This document shows, piece after piece, positions 33,689 through 51,300 of a stretch of 64,000 bases of DNA. The notes beneath the pieces were generated by a model that ran no database searches, was not told the origin of the DNA, and worked only from the letters and a program-made list of their open reading frames with translations. Origin of the DNA: Planctomycetota bacterium (GTDB taxonomy: Bacteria; Planctomycetota; Phycisphaerae; Phycisphaerales; UBA1924); assembly GCA_038748775.1 (NCBI GenBank), contig JBCDIT010000016.1:6600-70599 (forward strand). Direction: 5' to 3'. The position numbers and the translations under genes are program-made. The stretch's first letter is position 1; each line of letters opens with the position of its first letter.

Positions 33689-33778
33689 CGAACCTCGAAT
33701 TCAAAGGCAATCGACGAGACGATTCGTTGTGCGTGCATCGACCTCGCTGACGTCCAGGACGCGAAGGGGCTTGGCGGG

Positions 33779-33883
33779 GTCCGAAGGGCAAGCCTTGCGG
33801 ACCGTTGCGGGACGCCTGCCCAAACCGAATCTGGAGTGATCGTCGCCTTGGCCGGCAGGTTCTGCAAGCCAGATCCAGGCATC
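33779..33883. repeat. degenerate copy of the ~125-nt palindromic repeat unit
   Basis: TCCGAAGGGCAAGCCTTGCGGACCGTTGCGGGACGCCTGCCC...TCTGCAAGCCAGATCC aligns by eye with the unit at 36147-36269. Confidence 0.45.
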
Positions 33884-34116: not shown

Positions 34117-34824
34117 ATGAAGAAGCTTTCTCTTGGTGTCGTCGCGATGGCGGCGTCCGTGCTGTCGGCGGCGCCGACGACGTTCTTTGGTTTGGATGCC
34201 GGGGTCAATCCAACAGATCCGCGGCCGCGCTCCGATGCCGCGCGTGATCGTTTCCTGAACGCGGCCGGGTCCGTTTCCACGCTGACCTACGACGGTCTGA
34301 GCACGACGGCGAATGACACGTCTGCGAAGAACGTCGGGCTCGGAGTGCTGATGTCGGTCTCCGGCGATATGCGGAGCGGCATCCGCTCGACGCCCGGGTC
34401 GGCCTCGAACGGTTTCCGGACTTCGGGTGCGAACCGTTTCTTCCTGAGCGATACTAATGGAGCGATGGGCGGGGCGCCGGTGCTCACGATCGATTTCGCG
34501 GCGCCGGTCGATTCGTTCGGCAGCTACTTCACCGGGCTCAGCACCGCCGGCGGCAACACCCTGACGCTGACGTACTCCGATGGCGGGGTCGAACAACTTT
34601 CGTTGTCTGGCGCGCTGACCGGCGGGTCGCTCTACTTCGGGTTTGTCGACGCTGGCCGGAGCATCTCGCAGCTGCGCATCTCGTCGGCCAACGCGGGCGA
34701 CAGTTTCTCTCTCGACGACACGTCATTCCGCCTCACGTCGGCCCCCATCCCGCTGCCGACCGCATCGGCGATGGGGCTCGTGGGTCTCTCGCTCGTCGGG
34801 TTCGGTCGCCGTCGTTCAACTTGA
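34117..34824 (+). CDS. PEP-CTERM-anchored secreted protein
   Basis: Signal peptide MKKLSLGVVAMAASVLSA and C-terminus APIPLPTASAMGLVGLSLVGFGRRRST. Confidence 0.7.
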   Translation: MKKLSLGVVAMAASVLSAAPTTFFGLDAGVNPTDPRPRSDAARDRFLNAAGSVSTLTYDGLSTTANDTSAKNVGLGVLMSVSGDMRSGIRSTPGSASNGFRTSGANRFFLSDTNGAMGGAPVLTIDFAAPVDSFGSYFTGLSTAGGNTLTLTYSDGGVEQLSLSGALTGGSLYFGFVDAGRSISQLRISSANAGDSFSLDDTSFRLTSAPIPLPTASAMGLVGLSLVGFGRRRST

Positions 34825-34923: not shown

Positions 34924-35051
34924 GGGTGCCACGGGTCGACCCGAAGGACAACCCGTGAGGTCCCTCGTGGCACGTGTGTCCGACCGGTGTTTCTGGGGTG
35001 GTCGCCGTCTCGGACGGCACGGTTTGCCCTTCGGGTCAAACCGTGGCACCC
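34924..35051. repeat. 128-nt palindromic (REP/BIME-like) unit
   Basis: Bounded by GGGTGCCACGG (34924-34934) and CCGTGGCACCC (35041-35051). Internal hairpin CACGGTTTG...CAAACCGTG. It ends exactly at the RAYT stop codon. Confidence 0.75.
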
Positions 35052-35648
35052 TCAGTCGGAGACCTCGCGTGACGGTGGTGGGGGAGACGACCGGTGGTCG
35101 ATGTCGGGCCACAACGTGTCCATGCGCTTCCACGCCCTCGCGGACGACCACGGCCAGTCGGTCGAAACTTCGACCAATCCTCGGCGCACTGGGTTGTCGT
35201 GGATGTACCCGATCTTCTCGACCAGCTCGTCCTCGCTGAAGATGTTCCGGTCGTACCCACCGCCCGCCTGCCAGAACCGGTCCCCGGTCGCAAGGCCCCG
35301 CTCGCGACCAAGCCTTCGGACGCTCGTCGCGACGGGCCGCTTGATCGCGCTCAAGATCCGCGCCACGTCCGCCCCCTCGGGCAGATCGGGCATCACGAGC
35401 AGGTGCACGTGCTCGGGCATCACCACCCACGCGAAGAGTCGGAACCCGAGCCGTGTGCGGGTCCACGCGAGTTGATCGGCGAACACGGTGCGTCCGTGCT
35501 CGTCGAGCGTCGGTTCACGCCGGTACGTCGAGAACGTCAGAAACCGAGCATGCCCCGGGATCTCGTACCGACGGAGTGTCTTGCGGATCGACACGCAAAG
35601 AGCGAACCACGATCCAAGCCCAATGTCAACGACGCGGCCAAGTTCCAC
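35052..35648 (-). CDS. REP-associated tyrosine transposase (IS200/IS605-type Y1 family)
   Basis: HUH motif VVMPEHVHLLV and catalytic-Tyr motif IGYIHDNPVRRGLV, with flanking REP-like hairpins. Possibly starts at a downstream codon. Confidence 0.8.
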   Translation of the reverse strand: MELGRVVDIGLGSWFALCVSIRKTLRRYEIPGHARFLTFSTYRREPTLDEHGRTVFADQLAWTRTRLGFRLFAWVVMPEHVHLLVMPDLPEGADVARILSAIKRPVATSVRRLGRERGLATGDRFWQAGGGYDRNIFSEDELVEKIGYIHDNPVRRGLVEVSTDWPWSSARAWKRMDTLWPDIDHRSSPPPPSREVSD

Positions 35649-35691
35649 ATGTCTGTGTCCCCACCCGGCCGAAGCGAGGATCCCCGCCCAA

Positions 35692-36311
35692 GGGTGCCAC
35701 GGCTTGACCCGAAGGGCAAGCCGTGCGGTCCGTCGCGGGACGCGTGTCCGAACGGTGTTTCTGGGATAGTCGCCGCCTCGGACGGCACGGTCTGCAAGTC
35801 AGACCGTGGCACCCTTGGTTCGGTGTCTGCGGCGACGATCAAGCAGTGGCACCCGGCTGCCGCCTCGAACGGCACGGTCTGCAAGTCAGACCGTGGCACC
35901 CTTGGCTTGACGACGGCGGTGACGGCCAAGCAGTGGCACCTGGCGGGATGCGTGTCCGACCGGTGTTTCTGGGGTGGTTGCCGCTTCGGACGGCACGGTC
36001 TGTAAGTCAGACCGTGGCACCCTTGGTTTCGGGGTCTGTGGTGACGGTCAACCAGTGGCACCCGGCACCCTTGGTTCGGCGTCTGTGGTGACGGCCAAGC
36101 AGTGGCACCCGGCCATCACCCAACCGAAGCGAGGGCCTCCATCAAAGGGTGCCACTGCTTGACCCGAAGGGCAAGCCGTGCGGTCCGTTGCGGGACGCGT
36201 GCCCGAGCGGTGTTTCTGGGGTGGTCGCCGCCCTGGACGGCACGGTCTGCAAGTCAGACCGTGGCACCCTTGGTTCGGCGTCTGTGGTGACGGCCAAGCA
36301 GTGGCACCCGG
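35692..36311. repeat. array of REP/BIME-like repeats (two unit types)
   Basis: Full ~123-nt units at 35692-35814 and 36147-36269, and 3' partial units at ~35858-35901 and 35950-36022. Five ~40-nt units ending CAGTGGCACC(C/T)GG lie at ~35815-35856, 35902-35943, 36023-36065, 36066-36112 and 36270-36311. Recurrent hairpin CACGGTCTG-CAAGT-CAGACCGTG. Confidence 0.8.
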
Positions 36312-36412
36312 CACCACCGGTAGCGCGTCGCGTGTGAACGCCAGTTTGTTCGGGATTCGAGGGGAATCGTCTTGGCGGTCATGGATTCGGGGCCGCGATG
36401 CCGATATGCTGA

Positions 36413-37168
36413 ATGCTATCGAGCAAAAAACTGGGCAGGAGATCGCCATTGCTTGACCAGATCATCGACCCGTTCGCATTCAGGTCCATCTCACGCTGGG
36501 GCATTCGGACCGGATTTGGAACCGCGTTGTTGGACTCATGTGAGTTGGCAGCGAGTTGCTTGGAAGAGATGAAGACCGGGCGGGTGGGTAGTCGGACAGC
36601 ACGCAATCGATTGCAGGAAGTGTCGTCCGACACATTGGCTGACTTCGTCCTCTCTGATGATCTAGCCAACCCTTGGGTCCCCAGGCCCTTGGCCGGGGGA
36701 GGGCACGAGTTCGTGATGCCAGGCGTTTGCGTGGTCCGACTCAAGGCAATCCACTCGGAAACCCATGCAGTGAGCGGCGCGAACGTTCATACGGGGCTGG
36801 GATTCCGTTTCGCCCAGCACACAGGTCCGACGTGGAATCAGCAACTTCCGCTCTTCGAGGGGCCTGTGACGCGAGCGATGCTCAGCGGGTGGCGAAAGAG
36901 CCGTGTTACAGAGTTCGCCGATCTCTGCGTACTTACGCTCGGCATGGATATGCGGCCGGATGCGGAGGACGGATGGCGAGGCTGCGTGTTTGAGAACGTG
37001 ATCGTTGCGTACAGAGCGCCCGTGAACCAGACGATTTGGTCATTCTCGGCGCGTGAGTTGCTCGGTCGGACGGTTGCGCAGGTCGAAGATGAGTTGGATC
37101 TGACCCAGCCGGCAACCGTCCGTGTGTTGGATGACGCGGCGGAGCTTCGTCGCAAGTACGGCGCCTAA
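36413..37168 (+). CDS. hypothetical protein (no recognisable family)
   Basis: 251-aa ATG-initiated ORF, 40 nt upstream of the XRE-ImmA gene on the same strand. Visibly lower G+C than core genes. Confidence 0.5.
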   Translation: MLSSKKLGRRSPLLDQIIDPFAFRSISRWGIRTGFGTALLDSCELAASCLEEMKTGRVGSRTARNRLQEVSSDTLADFVLSDDLANPWVPRPLAGGGHEFVMPGVCVVRLKAIHSETHAVSGANVHTGLGFRFAQHTGPTWNQQLPLFEGPVTRAMLSGWRKSRVTEFADLCVLTLGMDMRPDAEDGWRGCVFENVIVAYRAPVNQTIWSFSARELLGRTVAQVEDELDLTQPATVRVLDDAAELRRKYGA

Positions 37169-37208
37169 GGCCGATCCGCGTTCATCGCGCGTAGAGGGGA
37201 ACTGAGCG

Positions 37209-38285
37209 ATGATTAACAGTGAGTGGTTTGTAGTTGCGCGCCAAGCCAGCGGCATGTCGCAATCCGCGGTTGCGAAGACGACAGGAATTTCTTCCGCACG
37301 GTTATCGCGGATAGAAAACGGACTGCTCATTCCTGCAGTCCACGAGATTGATGCGATCGCCGCAGCGCTCGGAGTTCGTCGAGAGTTGTTTTCTGACTCG
37401 TCGACGATCCGTGGGCCTGGGACGTCAGTCGTCCACCATCGCGCGCTTCGTCGGGCCCGACGTCGCGATGTCGAGCGCGTGCATGCGAGAATGGCGCTTT
37501 TTGATTTGCAGTTGAGACGACTGCTTCGGCATGTTGAGCCGGAACACGACGGCGAGTTGATACCCGATCTGTCGATTGCAACGTTCGACGATGATGGGGC
37601 CGAGATTGCCCGCGAAGCGAGGTCGATCTTGCGGTTACCACCCGGACCCGTAAAAACTCCAAGTCGTGTCATTGAACGAAGCGGTGGAATAGTCGTTGAA
37701 GCCCGGTTCTTGACGGACGCTGTGAGCGCCATCTATCGCCTTACGCCAGAGCTTCCCCCGATGTTCTTTATCAACTATGTACACCCTGGCGATCGAACTC
37801 GCTTTAGCCTTGCCCATGAATTGGGGCATGCAGTAATGCACCGTCACATTGGAGCTGATGATGATCGGGTCGAACAACAGGCGGATGCATTTGCTGGCGA
37901 GTTTCTTGTTCCCAGAGACTGGTTGGTCGATCGTGTCCGTTCCGCGGTTACGGTCTCGCTGCTGTGTGATCTCAAGCAGGAAACTGGATTTTCGATTGCG
38001 ATGCTCGCGCGGCAGACAGCCAACGCTGGATTGATCAGCCCGCGACGTTTTCAGAACATCATGATCGAGTTGTCGAAGCGAGGGTGGCGAACCAGAGAAC
38101 CAATCGACGTTCCTCGTGAAACTCCGGAGTTGTTTAGAGGCATGGTCGGGTCACTGCGGCACGACCTCGGTTACCAGCAGGCCGAGATTGAGCACGTATT
38201 GCTCCGCGACGATCGCGCACGACAAGACGACGAGTTCCTGGTTGCGATTTCGGACGATGACGGTCCTCGATTGCGACTCGTTTAA
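37209..38285 (+). CDS. XRE-family HTH fused to ImmA/IrrE (M78, COG2856) zinc metallopeptidase
   Basis: N-terminal HTH ([29 protein letters not shown]) and HEXXH in [13 protein letters not shown], followed by a ~130-aa C-terminal region. Confidence 0.8.
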
Positions 38286-38601: not shown

Positions 38602-39384
38602 TCAGCGGCGGCGGCGGGCGGCGGTGAGGCCGGCGAGGGCGAGGGCGGTGGCTCCGCTGGGGGGCGGGACGGTGGCGAAGAACTCGAATCCCTGGTGGAA
38701 GCCGATGTTGGCGTATCCGGCGGGGACGGAGCCGTCGCCGGTGAAGGGGACGAAGACCTCGACGGGGCTTCCGGCGTTGACGGCGGCGACCTGGACTTCC
38801 ACGCCGCTGAAGCCGGGGCTGGGCAGGAAGGCGTTGAACTCGAGGGCGAGGCCGGTGCGGATGGAGAAGGCGATGTCGGCGGACGAGACGGTGATGATGA
38901 AGCCGTCGGCCTGGCCGCCGCGGGTGTAGTCGACGCTCTGTCCGTGGCCGCGGCGTTCGAGGGTGCCGACCTGGGTGTCGTTGCCCCCTGGCGCCGATGA
39001 CGTGGCTATCTCCTGCCAGGACATGGCGGCTCGGAAGATGTCGGCGTCGTTTCGCGACGTGATACGGAAGGTGCCGTCGTTGACTTCGACGGACTGGTCG
39101 ACGGGGGCGCCGGTGAAGGCGTTGGTGGCGTTGTTGACAAAGAAGGAACCAACGAGGCGGTGGCCACCGAACTCGGCGGGGCCGGCGAGCGTCGTGGTGG
39201 CGGCGACCGAGGTGGCTGGCTGGACCGGTGCCATTTCGGTGAAGACGTTGCCGGCGGAGAAGTCGTCGATGAGATCGAGCTTCGTGCCGTTTGAATTGCC
39301 GAAGTGGATCGACTGGATTTCGATCGTCGCGGCGTGTGCGGGCGCAACGATCGCCAGGACGGACATGACAACTGCTCGGTGCAT
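38602..39384 (-). CDS. PEP-CTERM-anchored secreted protein
   Basis: ATG at 39384 (MHRAVVMSVLAIVAPAHA) and C-terminus VPPPSGATALALAGLTAARRRR. Confidence 0.7.
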   Translation of the reverse strand: MHRAVVMSVLAIVAPAHAATIEIQSIHFGNSNGTKLDLIDDFSAGNVFTEMAPVQPATSVAATTTLAGPAEFGGHRLVGSFFVNNATNAFTGAPVDQSVEVNDGTFRITSRNDADIFRAAMSWQEIATSSAPGGNDTQVGTLERRGHGQSVDYTRGGQADGFIITVSSADIAFSIRTGLALEFNAFLPSPGFSGVEVQVAAVNAGSPVEVFVPFTGDGSVPAGYANIGFHQGFEFFATVPPPSGATALALAGLTAARRRR

Positions 39385-39555
39385 GGGTCTCTCTCCTTGG
39401 TCTGTGCTCTCTCTGCGACTCTCTTCGTCCGCCTTGGGAGGCAGACTGTGCGGCGAATATAGCAACCCCCGTTCCGGGATGCAGGGGTATCCCGAGACGG
39501 GGGTTGCTGTTGACGGGTGGATCCGTGTTGGCTGGTTGGCGCGGTCGGGCTGTGA

Positions 39556-48370: not shown

Positions 48371-51300
48371 ATGTCCGACCTTCCCACGAAACTCGCCCAG
48401 TACGTCGTCGAGCGAGAGCTCGGCCGTGGTGGCATGGGGGTGGTCTATCTCGCTTGCGACCCCAAGCTCGACCGCCCCGTCGCGATCAAGGTCTTGCCCG
48501 ATTCGATGACCGAGCACCCCGATCGGCTGGCTCGGTTTAGCCGCGAGGCGAAGATCGTCGCGCAGCTCAACCACCCCAACATCGCCGGCGTGTATGCGCT
48601 CCACGAGCACCTGGGTCGCCAGATGCTCGTGATGGAGTATGTCGAGGGCGTGAACCTCGACGAAAGGCTGAGCGCCGGCATGGCGCTGACGGTTCAGGAG
48701 GCGATTCAGATCTGCGTGCAGACAGCCGCGGGGCTCGAAGCGGCCCACACCCACGGCGTGATCCACCGCGACCTCAAGCCCGGGAACATCCGTATCCGCA
48801 AGGACGGGATGGTTAAGGTGCTGGACTTCGGGCTCGCCAAACCCGAGGCCGATGCACACGGGGCCGGTGCCGACAGCGACGACACGATGAGCCTGGCGGC
48901 GACCGAAGCGGGGCGGGTGCTGGGCACCGCCGGCTATATGAGCCCCGAGCAAGCACGCGGCAAGCCCGTCGACAAGCGGACCGATGTCTGGGCCTTTGGA
49001 TGTGTGTTGTACGAGTGTCTCACAAGCACGCGTGCGTTCGGGGGTGACACGGCGATGGACGCGATGGTCGCCGTGCTCGAGAAGCAGCCGGCGTGGGAAC
49101 GCTTGCCAGAGCAGTTGCCCGACAGCCTCGCCGATCTGCTGAGGCGTTGCCTCGAGAAAGACGCCGACCGACGGGCACGCGACATCGGTGACGTTCGCCT
49201 GCAGCTCGAGGACGCCCTTGCGTCGTGGGGCACCGCCGGGTCGGTTGCCTACGGGGGGTGGCGGTCGCGCAGCGGTACCGGGTCGACGACCGGATCTGCG
49301 ACGGGGTCTGCGACCGGAGCGACGGCCGGTCGTTCGTCGAACGCGTCACCCGGCGCGTCGTCATCGGCATCTTCGCAAGGCGGACCGGGTCGGCCGGTCT
49401 TCAATGTCGGGAGTGGCGGCTCTGGCTCGGGCGTCGCAGGTCTCGCGACGCCGACGAACCTCAAGGCGCAGCTCACCAAGTTCATCGGTCGCGGCGCGAT
49501 CTTGAGCGACCTCAGCTCGCTCATCGAAGAGCAGCGGCTGCTCACGCTCACCGGCGCCGCCGGGTGCGGGAAGACAAGGCTCGCGATCGAAGCCGCGGCG
49601 AGGCGAGCGTCCGAGCACCGGGGCGGCGTGTGGATCGTCGAGCTCGGCGCCCTCGATCCTGCGTCGGCGAACGCGGACCGGGTGGCGGTTGAGATCGCGA
49701 CGGTCTTGGGCGTGCCGATCGCCGATGGAGCGTCACCGGCCGACCAGCTGATCGTTGCCCTCGCGGGTCGCGAGGCCTTGCTGATTATGGACAACTGCGA
49801 GCACGTGCTCGAGCCGGTCGACGAGATCGTCGCGAGGCTGCTCAGCGTGTGCCCGGGGGTACGCGTGCTGGCAACGGCGCGAGAGGCCCTGGGGCTTCCG
49901 GGTGAGACGGTCCTCAGCGTGCCCCCGATGGACGTGCCCCCGCCCGATGGTGCGTCGGATCCGGAGCTGCTCGAGGCCAACGAGTCGGTGCAGTTGTTCC
50001 TCGATCGCGCCCGCGCTGTGCGACCGAGGTTCTGTCTGACACCGAGCAACATCGGCGCCGTGGTCCGCGTGTGCCGGGAACTCGACGGGATCCCGCTCGC
50101 GATCGAACTCGCCGCGGCCCGGGTGAAGCTGTTGAGCGTTGAACAGATCGCCGAGCGTCTGGGTCAGCGGTTCAAGCTTCTCCGGGGCGGTGGCAAGCAG
50201 ACGCCGACGCGGCAGCAGACGCTTCACGCGGCGATCGCGTGGAGCTACGACAATCTCGAACCGTCCGAGCAAGCGGCGATGCGCCGCCTCAGCGTGTTCG
50301 GCTCGGGCTTCACGCTCGGGGCCGCGGAGGCGGTCAGCTCGGGCGAGTATGCCGAGCACGCCACCCCGGGCGATCTGAACGAAGACTCGGTCCTCGAAGA
50401 GTGGGAGGTGATCGATCTCGTCGGCCAACTGCTCGACAAGAGCCTGCTCATCGTCGACGAGGGGATCGATGACACGCGACCGTCCGACGAGCCGCGGTAC
50501 CGCATGCTCGAGACGATACGTCAGTTTGGCTTGCTTCAGCTCGAGTCCGGAGGCGAGTCTGAAGAAGCGCAGAACCGCCTCCTGGCATGGATGGCCGGCG
50601 TCGCCGCCGAAGCCGGCGAAGGTCTCGTCGGCCCGGACCAATCAACGTGGTTCGACCGGCTCGATCGGGAGCAAGCGTCGATCAGGGCGGCGCTCGGGTG
50701 GGTGCTTTCGGGCAAAGGCGATCTTGAGCGTGGTCGTCAGCTCGCCGCCGGCGTGTGGCGTTTCTGGGCGTACCGGGGGTACATGGGCGAGGGACGCTCT
50801 CTGCTCACCCGGCTCGACGCGGCCGGCGCCGGGGGTGAACCGACCGCCGCGTGGGCGCGGCTGCGTGAGGGGATCAGTTGGACCGCGATGCTCATCGGTG
50901 ATCTCGGGTCGGCGATCGCGTTCGGGCGGTCAGGGCTCGAGATGGCGCGCGCTTCGGGTGATGAGTTGGCAGTATCGAATCTCCTGAACTGTCTCGGAGC
51001 CGCGTGTCTCGGTGAGGGGTTGGCCGATCAAGCGGCCGACTACTTCGAGCAGTCGTTGATGATCCGCAAGCGGTTCAACAAGTTGACACTCGCCGCGGCG
51101 TGCCTGAACAACTTGGGCGAGTGCCGCCGCCAGTCACGCGCGTTCGCCGAGGCGCGCGAGCTGTACCGTGAGGCCGCGCTGGCGTTGGGCGGATCGACTG
51201 ATGTCTTGCTCCGCGCGACGATCTCGCAGAACCTCGGTTGGCTCGCGCTCGCCGAGGATGATCCGGCGATCGCCGGTGAGCATGCCGAGGCGGCGCTCGA

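Follow-up and report, generated by a model that had tools for sequence, protein, structure and literature searches.

A putative REP-associated tyrosine transposase and its probable cognate REPs in a Phycisphaerales-like Planctomycetota bacterium

The transposase gene

We analyzed a 64,000-nt stretch of DNA from a Planctomycetota bacterium (GenBank assembly GCA_038748775.1, contig JBCDIT010000016.1, positions 6,600 to 70,599; hereafter the window), in which a gene for a putative repetitive extragenic palindromic sequence (REP)-associated tyrosine transposase (RAYT) lies among an array of long palindromic repeats. The maximal open reading frame (ORF) at this locus spans 35052-35648 on the minus strand and encodes an HUH motif (VVMPEHVHLLV) and a tyrosine motif (IGYIHDNPVRRGLV), both of which had been read correctly in a first-pass annotation made from the DNA alone. 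The nearest database protein, P0001 (MEM1186486.1, 'MAG: transposase [Planctomycetota bacterium]', where MAG stands for metagenome-assembled genome), is the same protein read from a GTG at 35594, and the motif M-x-x-RK-x-LRRYE gives an equivalent start in all close homologues. Since homologues and the NCBI record both back this GTG, the gene is taken as 35052-35594 (-), encoding 180 aa; on these comparisons the most likely start is 35594 rather than 35648. The gene is present in one copy within the window.

Comparison of the protein with family profiles revealed a match to Pfam Y1_Tnp (PF01797; 27.8 bits over residues 38-140, cut-off 23), the profile that the first-pass annotation had named as a check, and to the NCBIfam equivalog REP_Tyr_transpos (NF047646; 98 bits, cut-off 80). 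It failed the IS200 equivalog NF033573, which requires 55 bits and gave 22.7. Among proteins of solved structure, Escherichia coli TnpAREP (4ER8; phmmer, E = 6e-8) alone matched significantly in sequence, with PEHVH aligned opposite PEHMH and YIHDNPV opposite YIYINPV. An AlphaFold model built on 21 homologues had a mean pLDDT of 90.8, and its top Foldseek match was again 4er8_A (E = 5e-10, TM 0.65/0.70, 175 aligned columns), with the IS200, IS608 and ISDra2 transposases ranking next, four orders of magnitude below (E ~6e-6 or weaker).

The HUH pair corresponds to H62/H64 (PEHVHLL) and the catalytic tyrosine to Y130 in YIHDNP (Y-x3-NP). H62, H64, Y130 and N134 were invariant among the 21 homologues (49-65% identity), as were G112, G113, D115, R116 and N117 in a GGGYDRN block and S150, S151 and A152 in WSSAR. 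In the scheme of Quentin et al. 2018 (PMC6006769), class 1 (IS200) has the signature Y-x3-Q, class 2 (TnpAREP) Y-x3-NP and the planctomycete-rich class 3 Y-x4-Q; the Y-x3-NP signature therefore places the protein in class 2. Because Pfam, NCBIfam, the sequence match to a solved structure and the predicted fold agree, we call the protein a RAYT, predicted to be a class 2 HUH/Y1 single-strand DNA endonuclease-transposase of the TnpAREP type. An assignment to subclass by motif was tried and set aside: the combination EHVH / WQ / YIHDNP fits no single consensus row of that scheme, and Planctomycetes genera are not mentioned in the supplements of PMC6006769.

The repeat array

The RAYT gene is situated between complete copies of a long repeat unit that consists of two inverted REPs (h1 and h2) separated by a conserved spacer of 57-60 nt (GTGYCCGANCGGTGTTTCTGGGRT), a two-REP architecture that Bertels and Rainey (PMC3116915) named REPIN. 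The copies were delimited by repeat alignment, together with a covariance model for their REPs. Unit A, a REPIN-like doublet of 128 nt at 34924-35051 (+), comprises h1 at 34924-34957 (+, 50.0 bits) and a long-loop h2 at 35018-35051 (-, 57.3 bits), and it abuts the RAYT gene, ending one base before the stop codon much as had been annotated. The 11-nt inverted repeat thought to bound this unit is present but longer, extending over 40 nt at 85% complementarity. Unit B (35692-35814, +; 123 nt with a conserved 60-nt spacer) carries h1 at 35692-35725 (+, 59.3 bits) and h2, with the short loop CAAGT, at 35786-35814 (-, 41.3 bits). The coordinates of this copy stand as annotated, but it lies 97 nt from the start at 35594 and not 44 nt upstream of the start codon. 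A 52-nt inverted repeat of 87% complementarity, made up of the 3' REP of A and the 5' REP of B, thus brackets the gene. Unit C (36147-36269, +; 123 nt) carries h1 at 36147-36180 (+, 54.1 bits) and h2 at 36241-36269 (-, 41.3 bits). Units A, B and C were 84-87% identical in the alignment.

Three further copies also aligned with the long unit. Copy D (35858-35901, +) is truncated at its 5' end to 44 nt and keeps h2 at 35873-35901 (-, 41.3 bits), and copy E (35944-36022, +), likewise 5'-truncated, retains 79 nt with spacer and h2 at 35994-36022 (-, 38 bits). Copy F (approximately 33768-33883, +) lies in the next intergenic region; it is decayed, has lost its tag and folds no better than shuffled sequence (z = -0.67). 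The alignment thereby bore out the third full copy and both partial copies described in the first-pass annotation, the second of these beginning at approximately 35944, as well as the degenerate copy.

Between and beyond these copies we identified the five interleaved units of about 40 nt that had been noted previously: S1 (35815-35857, +), S2 (35902-35943, +), S3 (36023-36066, +), S4 (36067-36113, +) and S5 (36270-36312, +). All end in CAGTGGCACC(C/T)GG, with a mean column identity of 90%. S1, which ends CAAGCAGTGGCACCCGG and forms no significant hairpin by itself, looks like a REP 3' half, and S4 starts with CACCC, a remnant of a REP end. The short units gave folding z scores between -0.45 and +1.1 against shuffled sequence and are therefore not independent hairpins; since their 3' halves resemble the right half of the long-loop REP, we take them to be half-REPs. 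Upstream of the RAYT gene the array can be described as five co-oriented modules, each consisting of a long-unit 3' end that terminates in GGCACCC followed by an S unit, with long-unit parts that are, in turn, full length, 44 nt, 79 nt, 5 nt and full length.

The motif GGGTGCCACGG occurred 15 times in the window with at most one mismatch, against 2.66 expected (a number reached in 0/100 shuffles), and 12 of the 15 occurrences were at the locus. The annotated hairpin CACGGTCTG-CAAGT-CAGACCGTG was found four times with at most one mismatch. When folded as single-stranded DNA, a check that had been proposed for the long unit, units A and B gave z scores of about -5 and unit C gave -2.6. In copy A the stem is CACGGTTTG...CAAACCGTG, with both arms altered as the first-pass annotation had observed; that annotation took this as a change preserving pairing, but the loop (CCCTTCGGGT) differs too, and copy A is therefore of another REP subtype rather than a copy altered by point mutation.

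The array was also searched for features of other kinds. Rfam at gathering thresholds gave no match in the window, no tRNA or tmRNA that might mark an integration site was found, and a promoter and terminator scan detected nothing within the array, including no terminator-like T runs. A CRISPR-like reading was rejected: the spacing is irregular (40, 47, 121, 41, 47, 159 and 40 nt), the segments in between are repeats too, and no Cas domain is present in the scanned neighboring ORFs.

As a separate observation, the C-terminus of the RAYT (35052-35096, -) runs about 14 residues past the end of close homologues (...IDHRSSPPPPSREVSD against ...IDR[CW]). Because the stop codon of this extension abuts doublet A, the arrangement suggests that the original gene end was replaced by the arrival of the repeat or by a rearrangement.

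Structure and covariation of the REP

At the 5' end of the REP is an invariant unpaired tag, GGGTGC, followed by a 9-bp stem (CACGGNTTG/CAANCCGTG) that carries either an apical mini-hairpin, most commonly CCC-GAA-GGG, or a short loop. In the long units of the window the same tag is followed by the 9-bp stem CACGGNNTG/CANNCCGTG and a loop, which is either long, forming the apical mini-hairpin A-CCC-GAA-GGG-C, or short, with 5 nt (CAAGT) and no apical stem. Units B and C have a long loop in the 5' REP and a short loop in the 3' REP, and unit A has a long loop in both. A covariance model (R1) was built from these REPs together with those of related genomes. Searching the 64-kb window with R1, a further check suggested by the first-pass annotation, recovered eight REPs at 38-59 bits, all within 34924-36269. 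The next match, at 49042-49075, scored 16 bits (E = 0.04), lies inside a long ORF and was treated as chance.

The 3' arm of the hairpin lay outside the pattern used to collect sites from related genomes (see below), so that its tracking of the 5' arm was not built in. At stem position 5 the pairs were C:G at 61 sites, G:C at 61, T:A at 3 and T:G at 2, and at position 3 they were G:C at 122 and T:A at 3. When 31 distinct REPs were aligned, pairing held in 98.7% of cells and 5 of 11 pairs changed on both sides; the observed covariation was reached by 0/500 shuffles, and pairing fell to 29-39% when the partner was slid by 1-3 columns. The apical stems also change in a compensatory manner (CCC/GGG, CCG/CGG, CCGC/GCGG and TCGC/GCGA). 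These sequence comparisons indicate that the structure of the REP is under selection.

Most long-loop REPs have an apical loop of GAA, of GCA or of 4 nt. The DNA mini-hairpins C-GAA-G and C-GCA-G are very stable, which fits a structure that is read on DNA. The GGGTGC tag was present at all 129 sites, a constancy that is partly imposed by the pattern, and partner hairpins outside the pattern showed the same tag. We also observed, in the SLDI01 genome (loci L001, L109 and L116), other repeats with a GGGTGCCAC tag and unrelated stems, such as GGGTGCCACACAGCA...TGCTGTGTG and GGGTGCCACTGACAAGGCC...GGCCTTGTCAG; in this clade there seems to be a wider REP superfamily of which the tag is the constant part.

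The REP in related genomes

We scanned one genome per species (GTDB representatives) with the pattern GGGTGCCACKGNNTGACYYGMAGR. Among the matches listed, the REP occurred at no fewer than 129 sites in at least 118 stretches of DNA from the genomes of 33 other species, of which 32 are titled Phycisphaerae, Phycisphaerales, Phycisphaeraceae, 'Planctomycetota bacterium' or, in one case, 'uncultured bacterium'. Minimum numbers per genome were at least 17 contigs for SLDI01, at least 11 stretches for JBLHKT01, at least 10 each for JAFIFX01 and JAVJSB01, and at least 9 for JBCDEF01. Outside the element the sequence is unrelated between sites, and the flanks show no signal other than a bias toward C at -1 and toward G at +1. 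When the window was compared with the genome-scan loci by megablast, all matches were short REP matches of at most 47 nt. The centers of 37 of 108 REPs fell in ORFs defined as coding by GC content at third codon positions, compared with 85 expected (p = 2e-23); the test is conservative, as stop-to-stop ORFs overestimate coding sequence. The REP is thus clearly a dispersed, mostly non-coding family in these relatives. The remaining genome of the 33 is represented by L106 (CAZSQF010000532.1, 1597 nt), a short contig that was binned in an Actinomycetota MAG and carries the exact Phycisphaerales REP; the Actinomycetota label is probably a binning error.

Linkage between the REP and RAYT genes was also seen in the relatives. 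A REP directly flanks a RAYT homologue in 10 loci (L011, L016, L069, L090, L094, L095, L113, L119, L120 and L121). Within the listed genome-scan matches, a RAYT homologue (53-60% identity) accompanies the REP in only 8 of the 118 stretches, always one such locus per genome in this biased scan, and about 110 have no RAYT nearby. A sense-oriented REP lies 25-70 nt upstream of the gene in seven of these eight loci; the exception is L108, where the nearest REP doublet is about 415 nt upstream of the homologue. Downstream, an inverted REP or doublet is present where the contig sequence allows. The two closest retrievable homologues, P0004 (66% identity) and P0005 (62%), have one sense REP 30-65 nt upstream and an inverted REP approximately 25-30 nt past the stop codon. 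Neighboring genes differ between RAYT loci, and the position is therefore not syntenic at this distance. The arrangement in the window is distinct: in the relatives the tags face outward with the gene inside a REP pair, whereas the nearest tags in the window face inward and the gene is located between two complete doublets.

The association of gene and hairpins could also be produced by an autonomous, self-copying insertion sequence of the IS200/IS605 type, with the flanking hairpins as its left and right ends. The Y1_Tnp domain would fit, and the single inverted hairpins with outward tags found 25-90 nt from each gene end in the closest relatives do resemble IS ends. Against this, the protein falls well below the IS200 equivalog cut-off, its tyrosine motif is that of class 2 and not class 1 (PMC6006769), and its predicted fold is nearer to TnpAREP than to IS608 or ISDra2. 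In addition, the gene is single-copy in the window, neighboring ORFs lack an OrfB/TnpB-like domain, and most REP stretches in the relatives contain no nearby RAYT. We consider this explanation very unlikely.

Analysis of the listed sites in the relatives identified 59 doublets of 72-96 nt with sharp GGGTGC...GCACCC boundaries, the flanks of which are not conserved beyond the C/G bias at +/-1. Both hairpins were perfect (9/9) in 43 of the 59 doublets, and in 30 of these 43 the arms of the two REPs were mismatched with each other. The individual hairpin, rather than a hairpin formed between the two REPs, is therefore the structure under constraint, and it is the individual hairpin that TnpAREP binds in 4ER8 (PMC3479197). 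Doublet spacers in the relatives are 9-26 nt long and vary in length and sequence even within one genome. Spacers from the same genome were weakly more similar than spacers from different genomes (p = 0.015), and clearly so in two genomes only. The flanking 34-nt REP was identical at 94 of 127 listed sites across the 33 species.

Hairpins that stay conserved while spacers drift suggest selection at each site, and most REPs lie outside coding sequence; both features would be expected if the hairpins served mainly as host regulatory elements (terminators, mRNA stabilizers or protein-binding sites) or structured RNA, the link to RAYT being incidental. Other data argue against such a role. The Rfam search was negative, the array contains neither promoters nor terminator-like T runs, and even an additional regulatory or RNA function found no support in these scans. 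An invariant unpaired tag beside a stem is typical of HUH recognition sites, apical GAA/GCA loops closed by C-G point to a structure at the DNA level, and REPs directly flank RAYT homologues in the 10 related loci. We regard a mainly regulatory or RNA role as extremely unlikely.

Interpretation of the locus

The first-pass annotation had proposed a RAYT-REP system, and the REP_Tyr_transpos score, the match to 4ER8, the tag with covarying hairpins and the dispersal of the REP in relatives all support this proposal. We conclude that this chromosomal locus of a Phycisphaerales-like Planctomycetota bacterium is very probably a REPtron, a RAYT together with its cognate REPs. We are much less confident of any specific cleavage site than of the RAYT-REP identity.

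By analogy with E. coli TnpAREP and IS608 (mechanism paradigms: PMC3479197, PMC6006769), the enzyme would bind a folded REP on single-stranded DNA, for example at a replication fork, and read the GGGTGC tag beside the stem. Cleavage and rejoining of DNA at the REP boundary would then proceed through a covalent 5'-phosphotyrosine intermediate formed by Y130, while H62/H64 would hold a metal ion. The 0.6-kb upstream array may have grown by repeated events at the shared GGCACCC end combined with local duplication, which would account for full, 5'-truncated and half-REP modules in a single orientation.

Several observations weigh against the REPtron interpretation. The tag is GGGTGC and not the GTAG read by the E. 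coli enzyme. Within the 64-kb window no REP was found outside 34924-36269. The 123-128 nt long unit with its spacer was not found in the 118 related loci, and two metagenome scans (for the short-loop hairpin with a GGTCTG stem and for the conserved spacer) gave no match. Neither the spacer nor the short units had a counterpart in the 118 related loci, save for a 22-23 nt likeness of the S5 3' half to a REP right half. The block at 36117-36312, comprising a 30-nt leader, doublet C and S5, is an 89% copy of the 196-nt block at 35662-35857, and part of the array is therefore a local duplication. The variation of spacers in the relatives also fits poorly with simple mobility of a REPIN copied as a unit: a constant REP with a drifting spacer is not predicted by copying as a unit followed by neutral drift. 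Selection or homogenization acting on each hairpin, or insertion of single REPs beside one another, may explain the pattern instead.

Taken further, the local evidence could mean that the array is merely a tandem or segmental duplication beside a relict Y1 gene, with a family that is neither dispersed nor mobile here and a RAYT that may be inactive. All eight strong REP matches of the 64 kb do lie within the locus, and the spacer is 80-90% conserved within the window (among units A, B, C and E), as expected for recent local copies. The duplicated block and the failure to find the long unit in related loci or metagenome scans point the same way, as does the density of tags upstream of the RAYT gene (11 tags in approximately 610 nt, 35693-36301), a cluster that exceeds all 170 counted in the 118 related stretches, the largest of which (L103) has 7 tags. 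Yet the same REP is found on many contigs in the 33 related species, all catalytic residues of the RAYT are intact, and copies occupy three separate intergenic regions. The first-pass annotation had taken confinement of the repeat to this locus as the mark of a local tandem duplication; the repeat is confined to the locus within the window, but it is dispersed in the genomes of the relatives. Moreover, contig 1 of JAVJSB01 (1.41 Mb) contains at least 8 exact pattern matches, and at that density finding no further copy in the remaining ~62 kb is, by our own estimate, a likely outcome with a probability of about 0.7, so that absence elsewhere in the window is uninformative. An origin by local duplication alone is, on balance, unlikely.

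A broader proposal, which we hold to be possible and no better than tentative, is that the GGGTGC REP and its RAYT form an old, vertically maintained, Phycisphaerales-specific system outside the described RAYT groups and tag superfamilies (GTAG, CGTC, CnGA). If this were true, hairpins would be near-invariant across species whose RAYTs are 50-65% identical while doublet spacers were free to vary, implying site-by-site selection or continuous RAYT-driven homogenization and not the copy-and-drift of REPINs. The 123-128 nt unit of the window, with its structured spacer, would then be a lineage-specific enlarged REPIN.

Comparison with known systems

RAYTs, REPtrons and REPINs are well established (PMC3116915, PMC3479197, PMC5581495, PMC6006769). 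The best match to the window RAYT in both sequence and structure is E. coli TnpAREP (YafM) with its REPs and bacterial interspersed mosaic elements (BIMEs; 4ER8; Ton-Hoang 2012; Messing 2012, PMC3479197). The two proteins share the HUH motif and a catalytic tyrosine in YI.xNP and are of similar length (165 aa in E. coli, 180 aa here). In both systems inverted REPs lie on either side of the gene, each REP combines an unpaired tag with an imperfect hairpin, and, as in BIMEs, REPs are clustered in arrays with linker motifs. The differences are a sequence identity of 25%, the tag (GGGTGC compared with GTAG), the commonest form of the REP, in which a bulged A is here combined with a 3-bp apical stem capped by a GAA or GCA triloop, and the host, Gammaproteobacteria in one case and Planctomycetota in the other.

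The REPIN-RAYT systems of Pseudomonas and Enterobacteria (PMC3116915; PMC5581495, groups 2 and 3) likewise show inverted REP doublets with a spacer and sharp ends, RAYTs flanked by REPs, and a family that persists across many species. Here, in contrast, compensatory changes keep the individual hairpins perfect and leave the inter-REP mismatches described above, and spacers in Phycisphaerales vary in length and sequence within a genome. Copy numbers are at least in the tens per genome, compared with 57 and 140 occurrences per replicon of the 16-mers that flank group 2 and group 3 RAYTs (PMC5581495). The window doublet also differs in size, its 57-60 nt spacer contrasting with whole doublets of 72-96 nt in the relatives. 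The repeat described in the first-pass annotation as an unusually long composite unit is therefore indeed long, at 123-128 nt, but its nature is that of a REPIN-like doublet.

Within the same phylum, reports exist of RAYT/TIRYT genes and adjoining repeats in the planctomycete Rhodopirellula baltica, and more widely of REPs and repeat-flanked Y1 genes in the Planctomycetes-Verrucomicrobia-Chlamydiae group (PMC3733652). These, and the class 3 TnpAY1 proteins of Planctomycetes and Acidobacteria (PMC6006769), resemble the window system in combining Y1 genes with repeated hairpins or inverted repeats. Class 3 proteins, however, have Y-x4-Q, W[TA] and a CnGA foot, as opposed to Y-x3-NP, WQ and a GGGTGC tag here, and by these motif and tag differences the window protein belongs to class 2 and not class 3. 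The GGGTGC tag matches neither the GGGGWSAS motif of terminal inverted repeats (TIRs; PMC3733652), nor the GTAG/GYRG/GTGG tag of the GTAG superfamily (Di Nocera 2013, PMC3733652), nor the CGTC superfamily. IS200/IS605 elements such as IS608 and ISDra2 share the HUH/Y1 fold, and their transposases recognize subterminal hairpins on single-stranded DNA. They are set apart by the IS200 cut-off, the tyrosine motif and the tnpB-like domain that the neighbors of the window gene lack, and by the dispersal of the Phycisphaerales hairpins without the gene.

The first-pass annotation considered such systems poorly described in this lineage. Among the papers searched, there was indeed no report linking Phycisphaerae with REPs, and of 159 papers containing GGGTGCCAC, none of the top 10 concerned REPs; on the other hand, the R. 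baltica reports exist, and NCBI labels several Phycisphaerales homologues 'REP-associated tyrosine transposase'. The biology is thus ordinary, and it is the lineage and the repeat family that are new; the repeat family of this locus does not appear to have been described previously. As REP-RAYT systems have been studied almost wholly in Proteobacteria, the locus and the 33 genomes constitute a second, phylogenetically distant data set. Its useful traits include a predicted recognition element of unusual clarity (an invariant 6-nt tag with a covarying 9-bp stem), a tag other than GTAG, and doublets with constant arms and drifting spacers, making it a test case for how a RAYT reads its REP and for whether REP populations are kept by selection, homogenization or transposition. 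At the level of annotation, the 'transposase' MEM1186486.1 could be renamed REP-associated tyrosine transposase and the flanking repeats could be annotated.

Neighboring genes

Two co-oriented ORFs adjoin the REP array in a region where GC content dips to 0.56-0.60 from about 0.65 (36413-38285). The second of these (37209-38285, +), with HTH_3 and Peptidase_M78 domains, gave full-length matches to the PADLOC models for RmrA (best E = 1.3e-45), which we take to be the antitoxin-like component of RosmerTA defense systems. The ORF upstream of it (36413-37168, +; 251 aa) had no match in Pfam, NCBIfam or PADLOC and could be a candidate for the cognate toxin of the RmrA-like ORF. Two other ORFs, at 34117-34824 (+) and 38602-39465 (-), had no family match; each ends in a hydrophobic stretch followed by basic residues (for example ...PLPTASAMGLVGLSLVGFGRRRST), and judged by sequence these C-termini resemble a PEP-CTERM sorting signal.

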